Source: a virus
IMG/VR virus record: IMGVR_UViG_3300046003_004989
Location: 32,001 to 96,000 of that record
Reading direction: 5' to 3' (one strand)
DNA: 64,000 nt
Part shown: positions 31,357 to 50,441 of the stretch, one piece after another
How positions within the stretch are numbered: position 1 is the stretch's first letter
Layout: every line of letters begins with the position of its first letter
Program-made: the position numbers and the translations under genes
Notes under the pieces: generated by a model
Databases searched by the model: none
Told to the model about the DNA's origin: nothing
What the model saw: the letters and a program-made list of their open reading frames with translations, nothing else

Positions 31357-32085
31357 TCAATTATTAGGGAACTTCTCATGATACGTTCGTAGATCTTTAT
31401 GGAATTCATTAAACCAGTGTTTGATTTCCTCTCTACCCATTTCAAAAAGCTGAACTTCACCAGTTTCACAACTGATCCAAATTTCACATGAATCTGGAAA
31501 GATTCCATGTCTTTCATGTAAAGCTACGGAATATGCTGCTGTTTGTTTCTTATATCCTCCAATCCATTCCTCTTTCTTCGGTTTTCTACTCGTTTTAAAG
31601 TCGATAACTCTAGGAGATTTCGGTTTACCCCAAATAGACAAGTCCATTCTACCTGCATATCCACCTCCAATAAAAGACCAAAGTGGAATTTCTTGAAACA
31701 TAACAGATTCAATTCTTTCATAGAAGTCTGAATTGTTATGAAATTGTAAGAACAGATTTTTACCACATTCGATTTCCTCTTTGGTCAGTGTATTACACTC
31801 TGCCATAGCCTTAATAAATGCTTGTTGTAGTGGTTTTGCTTCATTATATACGAAGCGAGAATTAAGATAGTGTTCGTGAAGTGCATGCATGAAAGTTCCT
31901 CGGTTTGCAGAGAAAGTAGATATTCTTTCTGCTTCAGCTTCACCTACTCGATTTTTCCACTCAATTAACCCAGACTTATCAGAAGTCTCGGTTAATATTG
32001 TTGTAACGGAAGGAAGTTTTATGCTCTTGTTTTCATCAACTACATAGTATCTTCCATAACCGTGATTTCCTACTGTAGTTTTCAA
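31357..32085 (-). CDS. PD-(D/E)xK exonuclease (MGME1/Cas4-like fold, no Fe-S cysteines seen)
   Basis: PSVTTIL, RGT.MH, AGRMD, IDFKTS, Q..AY. Confidence 0.85.
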   Translation of the reverse strand: MKTTVGNHGYGRYYVVDENKSIKLPSVTTILTETSDKSGLIEWKNRVGEAEAERISTFSANRGTFMHALHEHYLNSRFVYNEAKPLQQAFIKAMAECNTLTKEEIECGKNLFLQFHNNSDFYERIESVMFQEIPLWSFIGGGYAGRMDLSIWGKPKSPRVIDFKTSRKPKKEEWIGGYKKQTAAYSVALHERHGIFPDSCEIWISCETGEVQLFEMGREEIKHWFNEFHKDLRTYHEKFPNN

Positions 32086-36792: not shown

Positions 36793-39700
36793 TTAACTAC
36801 TAAACATTCCTTCGGATTTTGTTTTAATAGTTACAGAGGTTAATGCTTGAGTGAATGCTCTTTGTAGATCAGCTACTGATATTTGATTACCTTTAGCAGG
36901 TACTTGATTTGTAGGCGCATTGCCTTTTGGTGCTGGACCAGTTGCGGTAGGGGTTGCTGGAGCTGCTTGAGTTCCTGCAGTTTGAGCACCACCTCCACCA
37001 GCTCCATTTAATTCTTTTATAGCAGCTACGAGTTCCTCAAATGCGGATTTGATAGATTCATCTATTTGACTAGCGATTGCTTCAGGATTCTTAGCTAAGA
37101 TTGCTAAAGATTTCATCATAGAATCTGTCAATGTAAGTTTTTTCAAATCGAACGAATTAACGTGCTCTTTGAATAACTTCATCGATTTTTGAATCTTGTC
37201 AAAATTATCAGCTAATTTAGTCATTTGATCTGTAGTATCTGCCATTGTTTGTAGATTAGTAGCAAATGCCGAGAAGTAATAACTAATCTTAGGCATATTT
37301 GGATTGAGTTTTGGATCGAATGCATTATTTACTTGAGATAAGAATGCATTGATGGATTGTCCAGTTTTATCAACATCTTTTAATTTACCCCATGCTTCAA
37401 CTGGTTTAGCTGCATCAGCCAAAGCAGATGTCATATCAGGCAGAACATCTAAAGCAGAATCAACTGCTGATCGATTAGCTTCAACTAATCTTCCAGTGGA
37501 TGCAATTCCATGAACTAAAAGCGATAAGATAGTTTGAAGATTAAATGCAGCTTTCTTAAAGTCACTTGAGTTCATTTTTCTTGTTGAAACTGGAACTAAC
37601 TGACCTTTACTGTCAACCTTATATGTTGTGATTTCTGAATTTGCTAATTTAATAACTGCATCGGCAACTGATGATATATTTTGTCCTAGACCTTGAATCG
37701 CTTGAACACCTTTCTTAACATATCCATCCGAGAACCAACCTTCTGAATTGTCTTCCATTTCACCAATTTTAGCAATCTCTCTTGCAAGGAATCCTGTTAT
37801 CATTCCAATATTAACAGCTGCAGTAACGAAGTCTGTAGGATTCATTTTTCTAACAGATTTGATAACTAATTGTGGCTTACCGTCGATCATCTTAACTTCA
37901 TTTTCGACAAGTTCCATGTTTGCCATTTTCTGAATTACTTCAGCCATAGCAAGTAAGTTATCTCCAAGACCAGCAATAGATTCAACCCCTTTAGATACAA
38001 ATCCTCCTGAGAAGATACCAGAAGAATCTGATTCCATTTTACCGATTTTAGCTAATTCGTTAGCTAAGAAACCAGTTACCATTCCTATATTGAGAGATGC
38101 AGAAACAAAATCAGATGTAGACATTTTTCTAACTGATTTCGGAACGATCTTAGCATCTTTTGTACCAGCATTAACAACTTCATATTCGGTGATTTCCAAA
38201 TTAGCCCAAGCTTTAACTCCTTGAGCCAAATTAACGAGAGTATCACCTGAATTTTTAAGTGCATCAACACCTTCAGCAACTAAACCACCACCAAATATTG
38301 CATCGTATAGTGGATCTCCTGAAGATTTACCTCGATTAAGCATACCAACTTTTGCGAAAGGTGCAGCAATAGCTGAAATAACAAGTGCCATTCCGTTAGC
38401 TGCATTTTCAAAGTCAGACTTACCAAGTTTTCTCTTATTTTTAATTACAAGTTTTGCTTTTGCTGTTCCACCATTGATAACTTCCCATTCAGTTACTTCC
38501 AAATTAGCCCAAGCTTGAACACCTTCAGCTAATGAAGCAAGAACAGAACCAGCACCAGAAAGTGCTGCAACTCCAAGCATAAAGTCGAACCAATTAACAT
38601 TGATTCCCATTTTCTTTTGAGCTTCTTTATCTGTGATTATAGAGAATGCTCTAACAATTCCACCAATAGCATATTGTAGATTATCACTATCTCCTTGATT
38701 GAATCCAATTTTCTTAAATATTGCTAGACCAGCAGAAATTGATATTAGAGCAAGACCTGCAAGAATCATAGGTCCTACTGTGATAAGAAGTAAAGCGGCT
38801 CTAGCTGCTGCGGCTGCAGCAAATTTAAGTCCTTCAATAATTCCTCCTGGCATATCACCTCCAAGGAAACCAGAAACTACAGATCCTAAAGCATTCTTTA
38901 AACTCTCACCATCTTCATTCTTCCAACCGATAGCTTTAAATACTGCTAATCCACCAGAAAGAAGGAGAAGTGAGATACCTGCAACCATCATTGCGGCTGA
39001 ACCAGCAATAATAAATGGTGAAGCAAGACCTGCAAGACCCATTACAATACCTAATCCACCAATAGTTGCACCTAAAACTAGTGCATCATCCATTGTGAAT
39101 TTAGCTGCTTTGAATAGGACAAGACCTACAGAAATAAGAATTAATGAGATTGCAGCGATTGTCATACCAATAGCACCTTGAATAATTACTGAACCGAATG
39201 CTCCAGCAAGAGCCATTGCTACTGCCAATCCACCAACAGTAAGACCTAGAATGAGAGCATCATCCATTGTCATATTAGCTGCTTTATAGACCATTAAACC
39301 TACTCCTAAAAGAATAAGAGAGAATGAAACTATAAGAAGTGCTATAGCACCTTTAGCAATATCTTTCCAGAATTGACCTATAAAATAGAATACTGCTGCA
39401 AATCCAGCAATTGTAATAATTGCATATAGAGAATCTTGTGGAGTTACCATCATTGAAAATAGAACAATAGATAGACCGAACAAGATAATACCAAGTGAAG
39501 TATAGAGAAGTGATTTTACTCCATGTCTAACAGTGTCTGTTCCCATAACATAAAGTGCTATAGAAAGACCTAACATAGAAAGTGTAACTGCTAATGTACC
39601 CATAAGAATCATAGGTGCCATCATAGAAACGACTACCATCGTTAAAGCGTATAAAATTACACCTAATGCAATTTTAAGAGGAACTTTAGCTCTTGCTTCT

Positions 39701-40431
39701 GCTTCTTCCGGTTTCCCGAAAGTACCCATCGTTAAGAATAGAAGTCGTATGGTTAACCCAAATAGAACTGTACCTATCATAACAATTGGAGCCATGATAG
39801 TATAAAGAATCATAGTCAATCCAAAGATAAGAACACCTTTACCTAGTCCTGCGACTGCTGCCATACCTTTAGCAGAATCTTCATCTACAGTTCCAGCAGT
39901 AGTCATTAAAAGTCTTACAGTTAGTCCGAATAGAACTGCTCCTATCATTGCAAGAGGAGCCATAATAGAATAGAGTGTTAGGTATGCACCAAACTTAAGG
40001 ATATTCGAACCTAGACCATTGATGAGTAGACCCATAGCCTCAGCTTTTTTCGGATCTACATCAGCCATTGCATCATTTAGATTAGTGAAGAATTTTTTAA
40101 GTTTATCTCCAGCTTTATCATCTAACTTATTAACAGCTTTGATAATTTTTTCTAATCCGTTTGCTAGACCTCCGAGCAATTCTTTAAATGCTTTTGGATC
40201 TCCTCCAGTAGCATCATTCATCGCAGCATCTTTCATCTTAGCCTCAATAGACATTAAGATGTTAGTTTGCTTCTTTAGCTCGGCAGATACCTCCGTTTTT
40301 GTGACGGTATCTATCGAGCTTAGAAGTAATAGTGAATTTTCATTTGTAGTTTTAGCAGATTCCACCATGGCATCCATCTTCTTGAGGATACTCATCATAG
40401 AACTGTTTACATCTTCTTGCCTTACAGCCAT
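36793..40431 (-). CDS. Tape-measure-like protein with many hydrophobic helices and internal repeats
   Basis: 1212 aa, A/G-rich helical, immediately downstream of tail chaperone-like genes. Confidence 0.7.
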   Translation of the reverse strand: MAVRQEDVNSSMMSILKKMDAMVESAKTTNENSLLLLSSIDTVTKTEVSAELKKQTNILMSIEAKMKDAAMNDATGGDPKAFKELLGGLANGLEKIIKAVNKLDDKAGDKLKKFFTNLNDAMADVDPKKAEAMGLLINGLGSNILKFGAYLTLYSIMAPLAMIGAVLFGLTVRLLMTTAGTVDEDSAKGMAAVAGLGKGVLIFGLTMILYTIMAPIVMIGTVLFGLTIRLLFLTMGTFGKPEEAEARAKVPLKIALGVILYALTMVVVSMMAPMILMGTLAVTLSMLGLSIALYVMGTDTVRHGVKSLLYTSLGIILFGLSIVLFSMMVTPQDSLYAIITIAGFAAVFYFIGQFWKDIAKGAIALLIVSFSLILLGVGLMVYKAANMTMDDALILGLTVGGLAVAMALAGAFGSVIIQGAIGMTIAAISLILISVGLVLFKAAKFTMDDALVLGATIGGLGIVMGLAGLASPFIIAGSAAMMVAGISLLLLSGGLAVFKAIGWKNEDGESLKNALGSVVSGFLGGDMPGGIIEGLKFAAAAAARAALLLITVGPMILAGLALISISAGLAIFKKIGFNQGDSDNLQYAIGGIVRAFSIITDKEAQKKMGINVNWFDFMLGVAALSGAGSVLASLAEGVQAWANLEVTEWEVINGGTAKAKLVIKNKRKLGKSDFENAANGMALVISAIAAPFAKVGMLNRGKSSGDPLYDAIFGGGLVAEGVDALKNSGDTLVNLAQGVKAWANLEITEYEVVNAGTKDAKIVPKSVRKMSTSDFVSASLNIGMVTGFLANELAKIGKMESDSSGIFSGGFVSKGVESIAGLGDNLLAMAEVIQKMANMELVENEVKMIDGKPQLVIKSVRKMNPTDFVTAAVNIGMITGFLAREIAKIGEMEDNSEGWFSDGYVKKGVQAIQGLGQNISSVADAVIKLANSEITTYKVDSKGQLVPVSTRKMNSSDFKKAAFNLQTILSLLVHGIASTGRLVEANRSAVDSALDVLPDMTSALADAAKPVEAWGKLKDVDKTGQSINAFLSQVNNAFDPKLNPNMPKISYYFSAFATNLQTMADTTDQMTKLADNFDKIQKSMKLFKEHVNSFDLKKLTLTDSMMKSLAILAKNPEAIASQIDESIKSAFEELVAAIKELNGAGGGGAQTAGTQAAPATPTATGPAPKGNAPTNQVPAKGNQISVADLQRAFTQALTSVTIKTKSEGMFSS

Positions 40432-40440
40432 TTATTTAGA

Positions 40441-40758
40441 CTATATTTTTAAAGAAGAGGGGATCCCAGGGAAAGATGCCGGTGAATAAGTATTCATATT
40501 TGGCATTTTCGGTGTTTTCATACCTCCAGGAAGATTACGGCTTGCATCTTTCATTAACTGTCCAGGTGACATATCTTTATATTGCTTAGATTGGCCTTCT
40601 TCTGCTTCCTGTTTTTCTTTTAGTATATCTATCAGGTTTTGTACGATAAATTCGTATTCATAGAAAGGAAGTTGTTCAACTTCCGAAGGTTGCAATCTAA
40701 GATGGTATAGAAGATACGTCTTAGTCTTAAAGAAGTTCTCCAGAGATATCTGAAACAA
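40441..40758 (-). CDS. Tail/baseplate assembly chaperone C-terminal part (gp51/gpT-like); TTG start or +1 frameshift product
   Basis: LQPSEVEQLPFYEY motif; no early ATG; overlaps the upstream gene in the +1 frame. Confidence 0.6.
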   Translation of the reverse strand: MFQISLENFFKTKTYLLYHLRLQPSEVEQLPFYEYEFIVQNLIDILKEKQEAEEGQSKQYKDMSPGQLMKDASRNLPGGMKTPKMPNMNTYSPASFPGIPSSLKI

Positions 40759-41692
40759 CGAAAAGACTTTTGATGCCTCCGGGAAAGCTAATGGGAGTGG
40801 TTACCTCGGAACCACATTTTTCGCATTCTTTCTTTAAAATTTCTTTAACACCAATTCTACACATATCTGTTAATGAATACATTGTTTGATATTTAGTAGA
40901 ACTCCAAGACATAAATTCAATCTCTAAGTTATTGATTGCTGCTTCATTGAAACCTCTCCATTCTAATTGTAAGTATGGAAGAACTTTGATAAATGATTGG
41001 TCAAGTTTCTTTCCTTCTTGTTGACGTTTTTGGATGTATTTTGTTACTTCCATCATAACACCAATTGAAGGTGGAGTCATGATAATTGTACCATTTGACT
41101 TCGTTTGAATTTCAAATCTACGAGTTTCTTCATTGTAGTATTTTTCCATTTTTTGGTCTACTTCATTATGCTCGAAAGATTCGTTAGTTATTTTAACTTC
41201 ATTTTCATGATTACACTCTTTACAAGGAGTTTTGATAATCAATTGATTTTCACCTTTAGGGAATGTCAAATCTCTTACCGCAAGAATCAAGTGGATTCTG
41301 TCTTCTTCTCGTAAGTCTTTAAATGACATTTGTCTATTAGGTTGTCTAATCATTAAACAAGATTTCAAGATTTCATTTAATGCTTCATCAATAGAAAATG
41401 GATCTTGTTCATTAATGGTAGAAAAGTGTCTTACTTCTCGAACTTCTGCTGAACGGATAAAAAATCTAGTTCCAGTAGGATAGAAAAGTCCTTTTGATGG
41501 GAAGTTCTCTGACCAAGTTTCGATGTAGCCAGGAAGTAAAGCTGGTTCATCACGTCCTTCATTTTCATAGCCTGTTGCTTTTCCAAGTGAAGTAATTTTT
41601 GGTTGTTCTTGTTGTGTTTCTTCAGTCTGATTTGCATTGAATTCTCTTGATTCCATGTCTCTTTCAGCTGCGTTTTCAAATTCTTTACTCAT
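40727..41692 (-). CDS. Baseplate hub/tail assembly chaperone (T4 gp26-like)
   Basis: PSKGLFY, L...DR..L.L.VR..TF, CKEC and CEKC pairs. Confidence 0.65.
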   Translation of the reverse strand: MSKEFENAAERDMESREFNANQTEETQQEQPKITSLGKATGYENEGRDEPALLPGYIETWSENFPSKGLFYPTGTRFFIRSAEVREVRHFSTINEQDPFSIDEALNEILKSCLMIRQPNRQMSFKDLREEDRIHLILAVRDLTFPKGENQLIIKTPCKECNHENEVKITNESFEHNEVDQKMEKYYNEETRRFEIQTKSNGTIIMTPPSIGVMMEVTKYIQKRQQEGKKLDQSFIKVLPYLQLEWRGFNEAAINNLEIEFMSWSSTKYQTMYSLTDMCRIGVKEILKKECEKCGSEVTTPISFPGGIKSLFVVSDISGELL

Positions 41693-42161: not shown

Positions 42162-43544
42162 TTATTTAGCTATTTTCTTACGTAGCTCTTTCAAATCTGA
42201 TTGATACCAATCCGTTGGAATAATTGCTTGAACTCGTTTAGTTTCAGCTTCATTTTCACCGATTTGTTTAAGTAGCTCTTCATATTTTTCTTTCGTTAAA
42301 GAGTGAATAGCCATACTTAAAAGGTAGTCGTAAGAATCTTCTGTCTTATCGAATTTTGCTTTCTCTAAATCTGTGATGATATCTGCTTTTGGTCGATTGT
42401 TAACTTTCAATTTTCCATCAATAATCATCTTAATGAACTTAGCTCGATTTGACATCTTGCTATTTTGTTCTTCTAATTGATTAACTAAATAGCTTTTACG
42501 CTTATCGTAGAAGGTTAAACGGAATTTAACAAAATGATTGATTAACTCAGTAACGGATTTGAAGATAATCAGCTTACCGTTTTCGTCAAGACATGTAATA
42601 TTTTCTGTTTCATTTTCAACTAATTTCAAAGTGCTTTCTAAATTGTCTTTAGCAATTCGATTTGCTAATTCTTGTCTAGAGAATTTGATTGTATAGCTAA
42701 TATCAGTTTTTGTAGAATTGTCATCGTAATATGAGATGATGTTTTTCTCTTGCAACCAATTCAAATGAGCTTCATATTTTTGATATGTCATAGACGGTGG
42801 CAATTCAGTAACTTTTACGGTTGTAGTGTTTTGAACTTCATATCTTCCTTTGATTTGAAATGAACTTGTTGCTACATCAGATTTTGTAACTATTCCATTG
42901 AAACCATTCCACCAAGGAAGTGGCTCTTGGAATTTTTTTCCTTCTAATGATTTGAGAGATGCATCGATTAAGTCAACTGCATTTCGATTCAAGATGTTTG
43001 TCGAGAAACCTACAGCGATACCAGAAGAACCGTTAAGCAGAACTGCTGGAATAATCGGTAAGAAGAATGTTGGTTCAATTTCATAACCTTCTTCGTATTG
43101 AGATTCGAGTAACTCGAAGTCTTTATAAAGTAGTCGGAAATTACCATTCAATTTAGTTGATATGTATCGAGCAGCACCTGGTTCTGGAGAACGAAGTGAA
43201 CCGAATTGACCGATACCGTCAAGAAGTGGCATCGAATTCTTAAATGTTTGAGCCATACCGATGATAGCTGAATTCAGTGAAGTATCACCGTGATGATATT
43301 GTGCATCGGATGCAATTTTACCACCGAATTGAAATACTTTAAGTGGTTTGTCATTTCCACCTTTCCAAACTCTATTGGCTACAAAAATAATCTTTCTTTG
43401 TGTTGGTTTGAATCCGTCAATTGCAGAAGGGATAGCTCGATTTTCAATAGTGTACATACCATAGGCTGCATACTCGTTATCAAGATATTCTGTTATTGTT
43501 CTTTGTGGAACTTCGTTCTTAGTAGATTGTGATATCTTCGACAT
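42162..43544 (-). CDS. gp52: Type II topoisomerase medium subunit (GyrA/ParC-like)
   Basis: RAIP..IDGFKP.QRK, YHHGD, GQFGS, AARY. Confidence 0.95.
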   Translation of the reverse strand: MSKISQSTKNEVPQRTITEYLDNEYAAYGMYTIENRAIPSAIDGFKPTQRKIIFVANRVWKGGNDKPLKVFQFGGKIASDAQYHHGDTSLNSAIIGMAQTFKNSMPLLDGIGQFGSLRSPEPGAARYISTKLNGNFRLLYKDFELLESQYEEGYEIEPTFFLPIIPAVLLNGSSGIAVGFSTNILNRNAVDLIDASLKSLEGKKFQEPLPWWNGFNGIVTKSDVATSSFQIKGRYEVQNTTTVKVTELPPSMTYQKYEAHLNWLQEKNIISYYDDNSTKTDISYTIKFSRQELANRIAKDNLESTLKLVENETENITCLDENGKLIIFKSVTELINHFVKFRLTFYDKRKSYLVNQLEEQNSKMSNRAKFIKMIIDGKLKVNNRPKADIITDLEKAKFDKTEDSYDYLLSMAIHSLTKEKYEELLKQIGENEAETKRVQAIIPTDWYQSDLKELRKKIAK

Positions 43545-43863
43545 TGTCTAATTGTTTTGCTTTGTAAGTATTTTTTATGAAAGTGTACAAATCGTTATCT
43601 TTCAAAATTTGTTTATGCTGCTTCTTCAATTCTTTTGAAGGAGTCTTACCTTCAGGTTGAAGTGATTTATCCATGATGACTTCTGGCCAATGTGGATTGA
43701 CGACTAAACCGATGGATTCGCATATTTTAGTTATATGTGCTTTATGTTCTTTGTCTATCTTATCGGCTGTAAGACCTTTTCGATTGATTTGAAAAACCCC
43801 TGAGATGTATTCGTGGTAGTCTTCATAAGATTCACCATTTCCTTGTTTGATTACGAGTATCAT
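43519..43863 (-). CDS. Hypothetical protein
   Basis: ORF track. Confidence 0.5.
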   Translation of the reverse strand: MILVIKQGNGESYEDYHEYISGVFQINRKGLTADKIDKEHKAHITKICESIGLVVNPHWPEVIMDKSLQPEGKTPSKELKKQHKQILKDNDLYTFIKNTYKAKQLDNVEDITIY

Positions 43864-44015
43864 TATTTAGCGTATTGTAAGTTTAACAATTTGTCTGCTT
43901 TTTTAAGCTCTTTCTTAGCCGATTTGATGTTTCCTGCGAGGGTAAGTTTTAGAGCTTTAATCATTGCTATTCTAGCAGGTGTAGTTTCTTTAGATGATTG
44001 AGATTGCTTACTCAT
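43863..44015 (-). CDS. 50-aa basic early protein (not in the ORF track)
   Basis: MSKQSQSSKETTPARIAMIKALKL...*, TAATG coupling, follows a -7 promoter. Confidence 0.55.
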   Translation of the reverse strand: MSKQSQSSKETTPARIAMIKALKLTLAGNIKSAKKELKKADKLLNLQYAK

Positions 44016-44038
44016 ATTGATGTTTTAATTGTGATATA

Positions 44039-44097
44039 CAAATATAAAACAAAAGTTTCAAATTAAAAAATTTTTATTCAAAAAGTTATTAACAATT
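44039..44097 (-). promoter_or_regulatory. Host-type -7 promoter with TTATTAACA box at 46 bp
   Basis: caaatataa at 44039; gttattaac at 44085. Confidence 0.7.
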
Positions 44098-45933
44098 TTA
44101 GAACTTCAATAATCTGTCTTTACGAGGTTGAGAGTCACCACCAAACCAAGCTTTAAGAGATTCTCGATAAATTGCATCGTTTCTCATTTGTATCGTTTTT
44201 GGATTCGTAATGATTTCCTGATACTCATCATCTTCAAGAGCGGCAAGACCCTTTTTGTATTCTACGTTCCAAGTCTTAGTGTTCGTTTTAGATTCCCATT
44301 CTGCATATTCGTCTTTAGTGTAGAATGAAAGAACTTCCTTACCTTTCTTAGCAACAACCAGTGGAGTAAGAACTCGATAGACAAGACCTTGATCGAATAA
44401 CTCTGGCCAGAACTTGTTAAAGAAATTCATCAATAGACCAGCAATTGCATCACCATCAGGATCGGCATCGGTATAGATTAAAATTTTACCGTATCGAAGA
44501 TTTGCAGGTTCTTCACCTAATCGAAGACCAAGAGAACCCATCAAATTAACAACCTCGTCGTTTTTAATGATTTCTGTGTTCTTCATTTCAGATACGTTCA
44601 AGAACTTACCTTTCAAAGGGAAGGCACCAAATACTTGTGGATCTCGGAATTGTCTTACAGCTGATTTAGCCGAATCACCCTCGAAGATACCGAGAGTACA
44701 CAAATGTCTGTTATCTCTAGCTTTGGCATCAATTAACTTTAAAATCTTGTTTGCATTCAAGTCTTTATTAAGTTTTCTCAATTGTGCTCGTTCATCTGCC
44801 ATTGCTTTCTTTTCAATCCAATCCAAAATAGATGCAACGATCTCTGATCCAAATATTTGTTTAGCAAACCTATCAGAAATTTCATGAAGAGAACCGAATT
44901 CTTTTGGTTCGGTAATAAGTTTCTCTTTAGTTTGAGAAGAGAATGCTGGATTGATTACCGTACAATTGATGAAAATCATCATGTGATTTCTGATATCTGA
45001 AGGTTTGATATCGACTTTATGTTTCTTTTTGATTAATTGTCGTAACTTATCTACGATTTGATTAACGATATAATTAACATGAGTACCACCATCTTTAGTT
45101 TCGACCGAATTGACAAATGAAATTGCTTGGAATCCACCGTTTGTAGGTGATATTGCAATTTCCCAATTTTCAGATCTTTCATAGAAAGCTGATTCGATAT
45201 ACAGCTCTGCATATTCTTTGAATGTACGGAATTTGAATTTCTCTTTATTGAATTGAACTTTCAAATTAGGGTTACATGCAGCGATATCAATTAATCTCTT
45301 ACGAATCATATTGATATGTTCTTCATTAATAGATTGCATATCGAAACGTGAAAGATCTGGAACGTAACTGATTTCTGTGAACTTCCTATCTGATGCTTGT
45401 ACTTTAGCTTCAGATTTCTTACCCATATTATCCGTGAAAGTTTGAACGAAATTATTTTTACCGTCTGCAGTTTTTACTGTGAATTTTTTAGAGAAGATAT
45501 TTGTAAGTGTAGAACCTACACCATTTGTACCTGCAACTGTTCGGTCTTCATCGTCGTTGAAATTTGAACCAGCTCTAAGGTTAGAGAATATCATTTCAGG
45601 AATCCATTGTTTCTGTGTATCATGTATGATTACAGGAATTCCACCATTATCTTGAATTGAGATTTCGTTAGTTTTCTCGTTTATTGATACGGTTACTTGA
45701 TTAAGATTTTGATTACGTTTCGATTCATCGACTGAGTTAGAAACGATTTCGTCGAATAATTTCAGAAAACCTGGATTGTATTGAATTTTCTGCTTTTCGA
45801 ATTTTTGTCCATTGAATAAGTATTCTTCGGAATCATGTGGCTTAGTAGAACCGATATACATTCCAGGTCGTTTGAGAACGTGTTGGATTTCGTCTAGCAG
45901 TTCGTACTTTTTACTGATTTCGGATGTCTTCAT
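44098..45933 (-). CDS. gp39: Type II topoisomerase large subunit (GyrB-like, T4 gp39+60)
   Basis: HVLKRPGMYIG, EI..N..DE, G.NG.G, EGDSA, PLKGK, DADPDG. Confidence 0.95.
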   Translation of the reverse strand: MKTSEISKKYELLDEIQHVLKRPGMYIGSTKPHDSEEYLFNGQKFEKQKIQYNPGFLKLFDEIVSNSVDESKRNQNLNQVTVSINEKTNEISIQDNGGIPVIIHDTQKQWIPEMIFSNLRAGSNFNDDEDRTVAGTNGVGSTLTNIFSKKFTVKTADGKNNFVQTFTDNMGKKSEAKVQASDRKFTEISYVPDLSRFDMQSINEEHINMIRKRLIDIAACNPNLKVQFNKEKFKFRTFKEYAELYIESAFYERSENWEIAISPTNGGFQAISFVNSVETKDGGTHVNYIVNQIVDKLRQLIKKKHKVDIKPSDIRNHMMIFINCTVINPAFSSQTKEKLITEPKEFGSLHEISDRFAKQIFGSEIVASILDWIEKKAMADERAQLRKLNKDLNANKILKLIDAKARDNRHLCTLGIFEGDSAKSAVRQFRDPQVFGAFPLKGKFLNVSEMKNTEIIKNDEVVNLMGSLGLRLGEEPANLRYGKILIYTDADPDGDAIAGLLMNFFNKFWPELFDQGLVYRVLTPLVVAKKGKEVLSFYTKDEYAEWESKTNTKTWNVEYKKGLAALEDDEYQEIITNPKTIQMRNDAIYRESLKAWFGGDSQPRKDRLLKF

Positions 45934-46486: not shown

Positions 46487-47038
46487 TTAAACGATGTTTT
46501 CTTCCCACCAATCAGAGTTAAATTTAACCTCCATTGCTAGAGCATCAGATGATTGATAATCTAAAGCGAATTCAGGCAAATCTCCTGTTGGGAAACAGTC
46601 ATGGAAAGTTCTTTGCCAAAAGATATCACCTTTACGGTTGTAGTTAGTAACGATAATCGTTCCTATGTAGTCTTTCTTAAGACCTTGTTCTCCTGTAAGA
46701 GGATTGAAGATAATTCTAGACCAATTACGTAAAGTTTTGTACACATATAATTCGTTAGCGTCGTTCAAGTTAAGAGAAAAATCTATACTTAATGTATTGA
46801 CAGTATCTGTCGGCAGTCCACCTGCGTAAGAACGTTTTGCGAATTTGTATGATTGTGTGATTGCTTCTGTACCTCTATCTTGAGTAAGACCACCGATTTT
46901 ATTAACGTGCTCTAGTAAAATAGATCCTCCACTAACAGTAGCAGGAGGCATCAGCGTTACTTCAAACAAGTTGCCATAAAATGGCTCAAACCATCTAGAC
47001 GAAGCTTTTGCATTTTGATAATGTGGTAAACCTGGCAT
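46487..47038 (-). CDS. gp19: Tail tube protein
   Basis: FEV...P, W...IFNPLTG..G.K.DY, FP..L....LDY; follows the sheath gene. Confidence 0.85.
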   Translation of the reverse strand: MPGLPHYQNAKASSRWFEPFYGNLFEVTLMPPATVSGGSILLEHVNKIGGLTQDRGTEAITQSYKFAKRSYAGGLPTDTVNTLSIDFSLNLNDANELYVYKTLRNWSRIIFNPLTGEQGLKKDYIGTIIVTNYNRKGDIFWQRTFHDCFPTGDLPEFALDYQSSDALAMEVKFNSDWWEENIV

Positions 47039-47123: not shown

Positions 47124-50100
47124 TTACAAGAAGTTACCTGTAGCGATAGTACCAGTTCTTAGAATTGTAGTTCTGTGAACTAAGATACCCATACCTCTAA
47201 CTGGTTCGATGTAAGTATCTAAGATACCAATGTTATTATCGATTACTTCGTTAGTGTTATTTGTGCTATCCATGATATTTTGGAAGTCGTAAACTCCACC
47301 GTCAGCTAAAACTTGAGATAAGAAGTTATCTGCTAAAGTTTTGATTTCTAAACGATTTTGAGCAGTATTGAATTCCCAACGGTAATTTTTAAGAATTGCT
47401 TCTATACCATCTTGGATGTAAATTAGCAATTCACGAACGTGTACTTGTGAAAGTGCTGATTTAACAGTTTGTTGAGCAGTTTGGTTAGCGTTGATAGTTA
47501 AACCAAAACCTCTCTTATTTACAATTGCATTGTAACCAAATGGTTCAATCCAATCTAGATCAGTTCTATCGAAGTTATATTCAACCCCTACTAGACCAGC
47601 CCCAGTTACTACTCCTCTACGAGGACCTGCAACGATTGAGTATGGAAGAGCTAGAGTATACTTATCGATGAATAAGTTAGATACGTGACCAGCAGGTGGT
47701 ACAGAAACATTAGATCCATTTTCACGGATAACTAAGTTAGGACCATAGAATCCGGCATAATTAGCACCATCAGCAATACCTGGAAGGTTGAAGATATTTG
47801 AAGGGTTTAAGTTCAAGTTACCACCAGTAGGTACATATTGAGTATCAAATGATTGAGTTGTATCAAATTTGAATAATGGGTTAGTACTATCTTTAAATTG
47901 TTTTACAGAAGGCATGTTACAGATTGCCAATGCTGATTGACGATTCTTAGCAAGCTTAGTAAGACGTATTTTAGATGCAGGTTCAATTAAACCTTGGAAT
48001 GAATCCACGATATAACGGAATGTAATAACTTCACGATCTTCTAAAGCTTGAGCGATATTAGAATTGTACATTACATCTAGAATTGCATTCTGACGATCAC
48101 CTGTACCATTCGGCATTTGTGCGTCTCTTAAGGCATAACCATTAAGTGAAGAGAAACGGTAGTGTTCTACAAAGTTTCTAATGTCTTGATATCTTTCAAC
48201 TTCAGCGATTCCACCACTTACATTAACGTAGATTGGATCGTTAGTTGTTACTTTAATTTTTTGATATGTAGCAGCATCTAATGGATTCGAGTATTGAACT
48301 ACTGAAATAATTCTAGTTAAACGAGATTTTCCAGTTAGAGGGCTTATATTAGTTGGAGTTGAAGTTCCACCAAAGTTTTGTACCAAGTACTGTCCTTTGA
48401 TAATTTTTCCATTGTAGCCATTCAATCCTAAAGGACCGTTAGCTGAGTTATCCAACCAAATTGTAGTTGTAGGATCTGCAGGAGTTAATGTCGCATCAAC
48501 TTCTAAAGATTCATTGATATTACCAGTGTAAGATCTGAATGCGAATGTTGTTCCAGCAGGAATAGTTTGTGCTGAACCTGTCAATCCTGGGAAAAGGAAT
48601 GAAGAAACAGTTGAGAAGTTAATTATTCTATTGAAGATTGGGTTAACTCCATTGAATTGTGTAGTATAACCTGATGAGAAGTTATTTGTACCACCTCTTG
48701 TAAATTCAACATAAGTGAATGTAGCACCAGTTCCATTGAAACCTGTTGCAGAGAATGCTATTCTATCTCCATCAGTAATAAGACCATTCAAGTTTGCTTG
48801 ATAGATATCTGAATCTTGTCCAGCTAAAATACCAGCAGTAGCACCTGTATCGTTATATTTCCATGCATTTGAACGGATAATAGTTGCAGTTGCAGTTCCA
48901 CCACCATTTGTAACACCAGCACCACCAATATAATACCAACCTAAGCTAGTAGAAGTAGGACCAGCAACTGTAGATGTAGAATCTTGAGTTAAAGGAATTT
49001 TAACTGTTAGTGTGTTAGTTGTAAGGTTAAGTTCTTTAGAATTAATTCCAATGTAATTAGCATTACCAGTTGCACCTCCAACAGCAAATACTGAACCTGG
49101 AAGGAATGATTTTCCAACAGCTATTGTAGCAGCAAAAGCTTCGAATTGAGCTTGTGATGTAAAGTATGAAGTAAACAATGGAGGCATAGCTGATGAAGCA
49201 GGACCGTAGATTGTTAATGTATCATAATAACCTGTACCACCAACTGAAGTCCAACCTGTACCACCAGAAGTTAAAGCGGTAGAAGCAGTATATAAAGCTT
49301 GAGCACCTGTAGTTCCAGCAGTTGCAGAAACTATGAAAGGGATCGTAATAGCTGTAGCACCATTAGAAGCTCTATAAACTAAGTCTTCTTGAATCGAACC
49401 GTAATAAGAAAGGAATTCAATAATACCTTCTGGGTTTGATTCTAAAGTATGACCTACTGTATCAATTAAGTCACCAGAAACTCTACGAGATTCACCAGCA
49501 ATACTGAATGGATCATCGTCAAAAGCATCAGGGTTAAGAGCCATAAGTAAACCTGTTTTAGATGTTTCTAAGTTTACTAGGTCTTGAATATAGATATTGT
49601 TACCATTTTTATCTTGGAATTCTGGAATCATAGCACCAGTATAAACTCCAAGTACATTAACTTGAGGTAAAGCAAGGAAAGAAGTAAGACCGTCTCTTTC
49701 GAAACCGAATTGGTCGATGATAGTCTTTTTAACTCCTGTAGCATCGAAATAAGGTCCGAAGATTGGATCGATTGCTAATGTTGTGTAAGATGAGAAGTCA
49801 CCTTCAACTACTATTACGTCGATCATATAATCAGTAACGTAATCATTTTCATTCATCCAGAAAGGAACTTTACCAACACCGAACCAGTCTTTTGCAAGAA
49901 CATCAAATCCAAGAACATCGGATTTACGAGTAATTACAGAGATAGGTTTTCTACCAACGTTAGAGAAGTTAAGTAGTCTGTTTTGAGAAAGTGATTGGTT
50001 TGCTGCAGCTGAAGTGATTAAAGCTGCTGGATCTGTGAACCAGAATTTATCTTTATTGAAGAACGAAGATACTGGAGCAGAATCTACAACACCGTTAACA

Positions 50101-50441
50101 TCTGTTGCACATGTTGAAATTGATTGAAAGTTTGAAGTATCTAGTACGTCATCTAAATTTAAAAGGTTTAGAACGATCACTGGTCCTCTGTCTAAGCAAG
50201 TTAATGCTGTTCTGTGGAAGAATGAACCTTTACGCTCTAATGTCGTATCAATGTCTCCAAAGATATCCTTGAAGAAAACATTGTCTTGTACAAACACTGG
50301 AGTGTTGAATGGTCCTTTCTTTGAGAATCCAATAATTAAACGGATAGTCTCAGAGGGGATGTTAGTGATTTGGCTCTTATCAAATTCTAGACGGTAAACA
50401 CCACTAGATTTGAATTGTTGTAAGCTTGGTGATAGTGCCAT
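47124..50441 (-). CDS. gp18: Contractile tail sheath protein with large insertion
   Basis: SGVYRLEFD, GFSKKGPFNTP; C-terminal VPPAG, AGPRRG, HVRELL, WEFN. Confidence 0.9.
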   Translation of the reverse strand: MALSPSLQQFKSSGVYRLEFDKSQITNIPSETIRLIIGFSKKGPFNTPVFVQDNVFFKDIFGDIDTTLERKGSFFHRTALTCLDRGPVIVLNLLNLDDVLDTSNFQSISTCATDVNGVVDSAPVSSFFNKDKFWFTDPAALITSAAANQSLSQNRLLNFSNVGRKPISVITRKSDVLGFDVLAKDWFGVGKVPFWMNENDYVTDYMIDVIVVEGDFSSYTTLAIDPIFGPYFDATGVKKTIIDQFGFERDGLTSFLALPQVNVLGVYTGAMIPEFQDKNGNNIYIQDLVNLETSKTGLLMALNPDAFDDDPFSIAGESRRVSGDLIDTVGHTLESNPEGIIEFLSYYGSIQEDLVYRASNGATAITIPFIVSATAGTTGAQALYTASTALTSGGTGWTSVGGTGYYDTLTIYGPASSAMPPLFTSYFTSQAQFEAFAATIAVGKSFLPGSVFAVGGATGNANYIGINSKELNLTTNTLTVKIPLTQDSTSTVAGPTSTSLGWYYIGGAGVTNGGGTATATIIRSNAWKYNDTGATAGILAGQDSDIYQANLNGLITDGDRIAFSATGFNGTGATFTYVEFTRGGTNNFSSGYTTQFNGVNPIFNRIINFSTVSSFLFPGLTGSAQTIPAGTTFAFRSYTGNINESLEVDATLTPADPTTTIWLDNSANGPLGLNGYNGKIIKGQYLVQNFGGTSTPTNISPLTGKSRLTRIISVVQYSNPLDAATYQKIKVTTNDPIYVNVSGGIAEVERYQDIRNFVEHYRFSSLNGYALRDAQMPNGTGDRQNAILDVMYNSNIAQALEDREVITFRYIVDSFQGLIEPASKIRLTKLAKNRQSALAICNMPSVKQFKDSTNPLFKFDTTQSFDTQYVPTGGNLNLNPSNIFNLPGIADGANYAGFYGPNLVIRENGSNVSVPPAGHVSNLFIDKYTLALPYSIVAGPRRGVVTGAGLVGVEYNFDRTDLDWIEPFGYNAIVNKRGFGLTINANQTAQQTVKSALSQVHVRELLIYIQDGIEAILKNYRWEFNTAQNRLEIKTLADNFLSQVLADGGVYDFQNIMDSTNNTNEVIDNNIGILDTYIEPVRGMGILVHRTTILRTGTIATGNFL

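Follow-up and report, generated by a model that had tools for sequence, protein, structure and literature searches.

The locus examined here raises the question of how an open reading frame with no early start codon comes to be translated when it lies in the +1 frame across the stop codon of a tail chaperone gene. The window (the whole stretch of DNA that was analyzed, 64,000 nucleotides covering positions 32,001 to 96,000 of IMG/VR virus record IMGVR_UViG_3300046003_004989) carries all features and genes of this locus on its minus strand. The gp26-like chaperone gene ends GGA GAA CTT CTT TAA G, with the two CTT codons at 40735-40733 and 40732-40730, the TAA at 40729-40727 and the G at 40726, and the initial annotation had this gene end correct in every letter. 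At the junction the +1 frame reads TTT AAG ACT; it stays open from position 40800 down to a TAG at 40443-40441 (product P0003). ATG and GTG are absent from this frame 5' of the junction, and the earliest start-like codon is a TTG at 40758-40756. It had been suggested from this layout that ribosomes shift +1 at the stop codon as they do in prfB, joining the second ORF (hereafter ORF2) to the chaperone as a pair like lambda G/GT. Our comparison of relatives upholds a link of the two ORFs by +1 recoding next to the tape-measure gene, which we regard as well supported since the +1 arrangement recurs in about 120 distinct relatives and no start is conserved, but not a site at the stop. Short and long forms of the chaperone are very probably made by a +1 slip of some ribosomes, and the features on which this reading is built are collected in Table 1.

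Table 1. Features of the chaperone locus and its tail module, in window coordinates.
Feature	Position	Strand	Description
Tail sheath gene	47124-50441	-	PHROG tail sheath, 3.9e-142
Tail tube gene	46487-47038	-	PHROG tail tube, 1.9e-10
gp26-like hub/tail assembly chaperone gene	41692..40727	-	321-codon ORF; P0001, short zero-frame product
GC-rich hairpin	40815..40797	-	6-bp stem GUGGUU/AACCAC, loop CCGAGGU; ends 10 nt before UUU
Proposed +1 shift site UUU_CCC	40786-40781	-	Phe303, then rare Pro codon; conserved UUU_C + rare codon
Dual-coding overlap	40782..40727	-	Frame 0: gp26-like tail; frame +1: linker and N-terminal helix of ORF2
ORF2 part of the putative long form, +1 frame	40782..40441	-	P0003 residues 7-119; ends at TAG 40443-40441
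CUU CUU UAA G, earlier-proposed stop-dependent shift site	40735-40726	-	Present in the sequence
Tape-measure-like protein	40431..36793	-	1212 aa; ATG at 40431; directly downstream of ORF2; named from position and composition

The source is a giant phage of the Bacteroidota-phage type, and the tail tube and tail sheath genes upstream of the chaperone gene place the locus in a tail module. The same gene order (sheath, tube, gp26-like, +1 ORF) is found in phages PAU, pT24 and MA9V, and in relatives too ORF2 immediately precedes a homologous tape-measure-like gene. Neither the tape-measure-like protein nor ORF2 gave a single family match in Pfam or PHROG. Positions 42162-45933 of the window are taken up by small ORFs and by genes for two topoisomerase II subunits (gp52-like and gp39-like), which split the tube gene from the chaperone gene and so interrupt the tail module; that module is contiguous in PAU, pT24 and MA9V.

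To describe the locus across its family, we drew on relatives of the gp26-like gene from several sources. By tblastn the gene was found in the Lak megaphages, the LR7565xx huge phages, Chryseobacterium phage MA9V, Tenacibaculum phages pT24 and PTm1 and Sphingomonas phage PAU, and more than 500 homologues are held in IMG/VR. In 11/11 of the distant phage records (Lak, LR7565xx, MA9V, pT24, PTm1, PAU) the gene is followed by a +1-frame ORF that is open across the stop, and these ORFs all share a motif Q-P-S-E followed by P-[FY]-Y-E. The downstream ORF is likewise +1 and open across the stop in 80/80 IMG/VR loci found through ORF2. This set was picked with a +1-frame peptide pattern and is biased, so a second, unbiased set was drawn using as query an alignment of the gp26-like body minus its last 20 residues. 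Of its 65 distinct loci, 59 are of the overlap type (type A, +1 and open across the stop) and 6 carry ORF2 as a separate gene with its own ATG (type B), which in some follows a terminator-like hairpin and in some lies in a different frame. The earlier description of the next ORF as +1, lacking an early AUG and standing just before the tape-measure gene is thus confirmed and exceeds what chance would give, and the +1 arrangement is kept in about 120 distinct relatives, a count that overstates independence because the sequences are kin. The ORF2 family itself comprises 499 clusters at 50% identity, for which gene callers place the start at no fewer than eight different positions. No fused in-frame homologue of ORF2 was found among proteins of 228-728 aa, nor among the best 150 of the 499 profile matches, all of which are 56-180 aa long. 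Right after the +1 ORF2 of LR756500.1 stands a second, ATG-started ORF (L001:2697-2876), a standalone paralogue that shares the helix and the motif N-L-P-Y-Y-E-F with ORF2.

The substitution pattern before the stop bears directly on the frame in which this stretch is read. Across 57 distinct type A sequences of the unbiased set, the zero-frame wobble entropy is saturated at 1.4-1.9 bits upstream of codon -16 and is 0.00 at codons -15, -10, -9, -7, -6 and -5. From codon -15 to the stop the positions that do vary are the wobble sites of the +1 frame, and several +1 residues are invariant. Read from the alignment, frozen zero-frame wobble combined with free +1 wobble is the signature of +1-frame translation before the stop. 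The type B loci provide a natural comparison: at the 3' end of their gp26-like genes the free wobble sites are back, the last codons are varied, the stop is TAG or TAA and the +1 frame contains 2-3 stops. Moreover, the +1 reading upstream of the type A stop aligns without gaps with the N-termini of the standalone ORF2 proteins of the six type B relatives. These ATG-started homologues show that what the +1 frame encodes ahead of the stop is genuine protein sequence. In the AF2 model one continuous helix spans the junction (P0003 residues 7-34, pLDDT about 80).

It is also important to consider how far upstream the +1 frame must be entered. Stops in the +1 frame occur at codon -21 (in 9/57 sequences and in LR756500) and none occur later. 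Every overlap-type lineage has a +1 frame that is open over 20 or more codons ahead of the stop; in the gene bodies only 21-24% of 20-codon windows are open in the +1 frame. The Lak phages and LR756501 are included in this, with an ORF2 domain that lies wholly downstream of the gp26-like stop and yet a +1 frame that is open for at least 20 codons upstream of it. Since the +1 stops end at codon -21 and the constraint begins at codon -15, entry would take place between codons -20 and -15.

Within this interval, the proposed site in the window sits at codon -19 relative to the stop. TTT occupies this codon in 51/57 relatives, and the first base of codon -18 is always C, while the residue that codon -18 encodes varies between P, R and Q. 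The codons chosen for these residues are unusual: where codon -18 encodes Pro it is CCC in 23/33 sequences (70%, vs. 3% in gene bodies), and where it encodes Arg it is CGC in 11/23 (48%, vs. 2% in gene bodies) and never AGA, the codon used for 73% of Arg elsewhere. The A-site codon after UUU is accordingly CCC, CGC or CGT in relatives, many of which carry exactly NNC_UUU_CGY. The TTT CCC dicodon occurs once in the 19,103 codons of the window's ORFs, in which CCC is used 1.0 times per 1000 codons and for 3% of Pro, and in LR745206, LR756502, LR756501 and pT24 the CCC after TTT is the sole CCC of the whole gene. As far as the aligned relatives can tell, UUU followed by C and a rare codon is the only conserved signal of the entry window that does not depend on the encoded residue, and UUU_CCC is most likely the shift site, or at least its best candidate. 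The signal is not universal. One clade of six sequences lacks UUU_C and has TTC CCA instead, plus a GTG in the +1 frame; PTm1 is without the site, MA9V has no UUU_C at this position and one further downstream, and L013 has only CCC_A. Since UUU_C is missing or displaced in these lineages, the site would have moved or been replaced there. The +1 A-site codon, CCG, is rare as well, which counts against a shift at UUU_C. A second UUU_C (TTT CAG, 40757-40754) lies inside the +1 reading of the window and was positive in a four-letter translation test.

These patterns have to be weighed against other ways of connecting, or not connecting, the two ORFs. A prfB-like shift as proposed earlier would have the tRNA-Leu slip from CUU to UUU at CUU_UAA_G (40732-40726), joining the whole gp26-like tail to K-T-K and what follows. 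Several observations agree with this: most of the window's clade keeps CUU (or AUU) with UAA and a purine after it, the CUU-UAA site is conserved in 74/80 of the ORF2-found loci and 49/65 of the unbiased ones, the Lak phages have UUU_UAA with the whole ORF2 domain downstream of the stop and no ATG, and T4 gp51 has the look of a complete gp26-like domain, with its tail, to which an extension is added. The conservation that had been put forward as a check is thus real, but the +1 residues F-F-K account for the letters CUU-UAA-R, which therefore give a slip at the stop no support of their own. Several clades end the zero frame with UUA or CUA, a change that leaves the frame-0 residue as it is, replaces F by Y in the +1 frame and makes re-pairing poor or absent. 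The purine run GGAGAA, read earlier as an SD-like element 3 nt upstream of CUU, is not conserved and gives way to TCTGAA, GCTGAA, ACAGAA or GACGAA elsewhere in the family. A slip at the stop would further leave unexplained the +1 purifying selection on the 15 codons before it, the match of that stretch to standalone ORF2 N-termini and the universal openness of the +1 frame for at least 20 codons upstream, and we consider it very unlikely. As for an assembly or sequencing error, or a decaying gene with one true frame and a dead ORF2, single-base frame breaks near T runs are a common artifact; however, upwards of 100 independent assemblies have the same break and selection acts on both frames, so that this explanation is already contradicted and its probability is negligible.

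The main rival is that there is no fusion and that ORF2 is an ordinary overlapping gene initiated on its own inside the gp26-like gene, whether at the TTG at 40758, at another near-cognate codon or by termination-coupled re-initiation. Six relatives do, after all, encode ORF2 separately with an ATG of its own, a GTG stands at +1 codon -17 in one clade, an ATG, GTG or TTG is present somewhere in the entry window in 44/58 distinct sequences, and the databases hold short ORF2 proteins only (as seen in the best 150 of 499 matches). Against this, no start codon is conserved in position: the window and 13 other distinct sequences (14/58) have no ATG, GTG or TTG before codon -13, and the TTG at +1 codon -10, which had been named as a possible UUG start, is not maintained, being TTA in half of the 58 relatives. 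The strict +1 relation would also be unexpected for independent genes, since the usual ATGA and TAATG overlaps give the other frame, and the UUU_C and rare-codon signal would lack an explanation. On balance, independent initiation seems to us unlikely. A +1 shift could instead occur at another site in the overlap, such as AAA_A (40771-40768) or CUU_UUC (40765-40760), or at several weak sites. Both of these permit re-pairing in the window, (C/A)UU_UUC at an L/I-F motif recurs in distant relatives, and MA9V has its UUU_C there. About half of the relatives, however, have AAG in place of AAA or a U after it, 13/57 show CUC_UUU or the like instead of CUU_UUC, and neither site accounts for the frozen wobble at relative positions -43 and -37 or for the C at -54, which makes such a placement of the shift quite unlikely.

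Upstream of UUU_C the composition of the gene changes in a way that is consistent with a recoding signal. The GC3 of codons -30 to -16 is 0.59 in type A, compared with 0.22 in the gene body and 0.16 in type B, and the median fold energy is -10.2 kcal/mol in type A vs. -3.0 in type B; neither the rise in GC3 nor the hairpin, which falls within these codons, is present in type B. The stems of the hairpin vary between clades and in distant relatives, with a GGAGG-type loop retained. An arm-swap test and pair counts lend the hairpin modest to moderate support. RNAalifold returned zero pairs on relative positions -89..+69 and -92..-41, with no single-register consensus, because the stems sit in different registers. 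When pairs are counted in a single register, 66% of cells are paired and the covariation is 0.34 vs. 0.26, a value reached by 2/500 shuffles, which is only suggestive. No stable structure that might serve as a downstream stimulator was predicted in the fold of 40800-40640 (z = -1.3). Published upstream hairpins that stimulate +1 shifts adjoin the E site (PMC3639245, PMC6321510), whereas the one described here is 10 nt off.

With this in mind, we propose that the gp26-like gene is decoded in two ways. Most ribosomes would read to the UAA and release the 321-aa chaperone. In a minority, the tRNA-Phe on UUU (40786-40784) would slip +1 while the very rare CCC waits in the A site, re-pair with UUC and allow the +1 reading to continue to the TAG at 40443. 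The long product would be a 416-aa fusion of gp26-like residues 1-303 and P0003 residues 7-119, the latter forming a helical extension of 113 residues, and about 55 nt from the shift site to the UAA would be coding in both frames. The upstream GC-rich hairpin and the cluster of rare G/C-ending codons would probably tune the slip. What the data show are the conservation patterns given above; that a slip takes place, how efficient it is, what the hairpin does and how the products function are our inferences. Taken in full, with the shift at UUU_C, the 416-aa fusion and the dual-coding overlap of about 55 nt, this is a reading that we regard as evenly poised between right and wrong. The pair would represent short and long hub or tail assembly chaperones in the manner of lambda G/GT, as suggested by the order of tube, chaperone and tape measure and by homology to T4 gp26 and gp51. 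A search of the literature found no paper on frameshifting in gp26-type genes.

The relation to the T4 proteins rests on profile comparison. P0001 gives a weak match to PF12322 (T4_baseplate) with E 4e-5 and 23.9 bits against a gathering cut-off of 24.5, and the family is matched by 6/13 aligned relatives, the best at 3.4e-8. T4 gp26 (208 aa) and gp51 (249 aa), which are hub assembly chaperones (PMC3004832), match PF12322 over about 200 residues with 215 and 177 bits, gp51 carrying a 48-aa C-terminal extension. Alignment of the gp26-like protein to T4 gp26 alone by hhalign is weak, and a Foldseek search of its AF2 model (pLDDT 82.5) against PDB returned nothing at E <= 0.001. The gp26-like protein ends in ELL as T4 gp26 does, with a shared tail G-(I/L)-K...ELL before the stop. 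By eye, the gp51 extension has I-F-x-F-x-Q-I and P-x-E motifs at the same 25-residue spacing as ORF2. Profile comparison of ORF2 with T4 gp51, the C-terminal part of gp51 and gp28 gave no significant match (hhalign E 0.15 for the gp51 extension). With gp51 built as a gp26-like domain plus an extension, T4 gp26 and gp51 look like the short and long forms proposed here, but T4 has two separate genes and no frameshift, and the conserved G-T frameshifting of tail chaperones has been described as holding "except T4" (PMC5009743). A second overlap in the T4 hub cluster is that of genes 27 and 28 (L175:6349-6404), where gene 28 has its +1-frame start 56 nt within gene 27.

Comparison with established frameshift systems clarifies which parts of the arrangement are familiar. 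As in lambda gpG/gpGT and P2 E/E+E', two overlapping ORFs stand just before the tape-measure gene in the tail module. Here the ORFs overlap between tube and tape measure, the second has no start (nothing before +1 codon -10), and a conserved slippery site, UUU_C with a rare codon, is found where the second frame opens. As in lambda, the downstream ORF is startless, and the minor long form proposed here would share its N-terminal part with the abundant short form; neither of the G/GT-type forms is expected in virions (PMC5009743). The differences are equally clear. The direction is +1 in every relative rather than -1 on an X XXY YYZ heptamer, the chaperone is a member of the T4 gp26/gp51 family and not of the G family, the overlap is long (about 18 codons) with both readings conserved, and the counterpart of the T part is a separate gene in some relatives.

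The slippery sequence itself has closer parallels outside tail genes. UUU_Ynn is a recognized +1-prone sequence in bacteria, and UCC_UUU_CGU is the cassette of the influenza PA-X shift (PMC5009743). The window's TTT CCC combines a P-site UUU, a pyrimidine and a rare A-site codon, and it resembles influenza A PA-X and Yersinia YopN-TyeA in having P-site UUU followed by C, the possibility of tRNA-Phe re-pairing on UUC and a rare, slow A-site codon. Unlike those cases, the site lies in a phage tail gene with a hairpin before it and a dual-coding stretch after it, and the shift is one that we only propose. E. coli prfB (RF2, CUU_UGA with an upstream SD) has in common with the locus the letters CUU_U plus stop at a gene end. 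It differs in that our locus has no conserved SD-like element, uses UAA as its stop, would change frame upstream of the stop and has no autoregulatory logic. The Listeria phages PSA, A118 and A500 (CCC_UGA, ACA_CCC) likewise shift +1 in structural genes of low-GC genomes with rare CCC, but CCC there is the slipping P-site codon, whereas CCC or CGY here would be the hungry A-site codon after UUU.

Frameshifting of tail chaperones is a textbook rule for long-tailed phages to which T4 is the stated exception (PMC5009743). If gp26-type short and long forms are indeed made by a +1 shift in hundreds of jumbo phages, the T4-type phages would join this rule, gp26 being their short form and gp51 their long one. 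A widespread orphan ORF, which gene callers now start at random places, could be better annotated, and the locus would offer a natural bacterial case of +1 recoding at UUU_C plus a hungry codon with a long stretch selected in two frames. The hosts in question, Bacteroidota, largely ignore SD sequences, and their anti-SD is normally hidden. A wider conjecture is that the hairpin with its GGAGG-type loop, a spacer of about 10 nt, UUU_C and a rare codon form a so far undescribed bacterial +1 signal that works on Bacteroidota ribosomes, is common to jumbo and mega-phages from Lak to Sphingomonas phage PAU and is ancestral to the separate T4 genes 26 and 51, which would have arisen when the 18-codon dual-coding overlap was resolved. 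We hold this to be doubtful rather than probable.

The tRNA genes of the phage and its relatives are also of interest. A tRNA with anticodon CUA, an amber suppressor, is encoded outside the window (G000:C1 4789-4860, complement; L176:491-561) and scores 67.4 bits against Rfam tRNA. TAG ends 0/50 long ORFs in the window; ORF2 ends with TAG and its relatives with TAA. TAG may be suppressed or reassigned in this phage as it is in Lak phages. Some 17 codons past the gp26-like stop, the ORF2 reading of Lak-B5 (L005) contains an in-frame TAG at the position of a GAA in Lak-C1 (L007), which fits the known TAG reassignment of these phages. Near the CUA gene lies a tRNA-like gene with a GAA (Phe) anticodon (G000:C1 4548-4622, complement; L176:249-323). 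Its anticodon loop has six members, position 38 being absent, its discriminator is A and its score is below the Rfam tRNA threshold. Homologues of it were found neither in the phage collection nor in five related contigs, and its pattern matches in IMG/VR were unrelated. More remote, and a matter of speculation, is the possibility that this tRNA-like gene of the phage drives the slip. A close relative (294 kb, IMG/VR, the contig of L003) has a cluster of more than 30 tRNA genes, and one of the tRNAs encoded by this relative (L190:255-327) has an eight-membered anticodon loop, with the anticodon given by ARAGORN as agcg.
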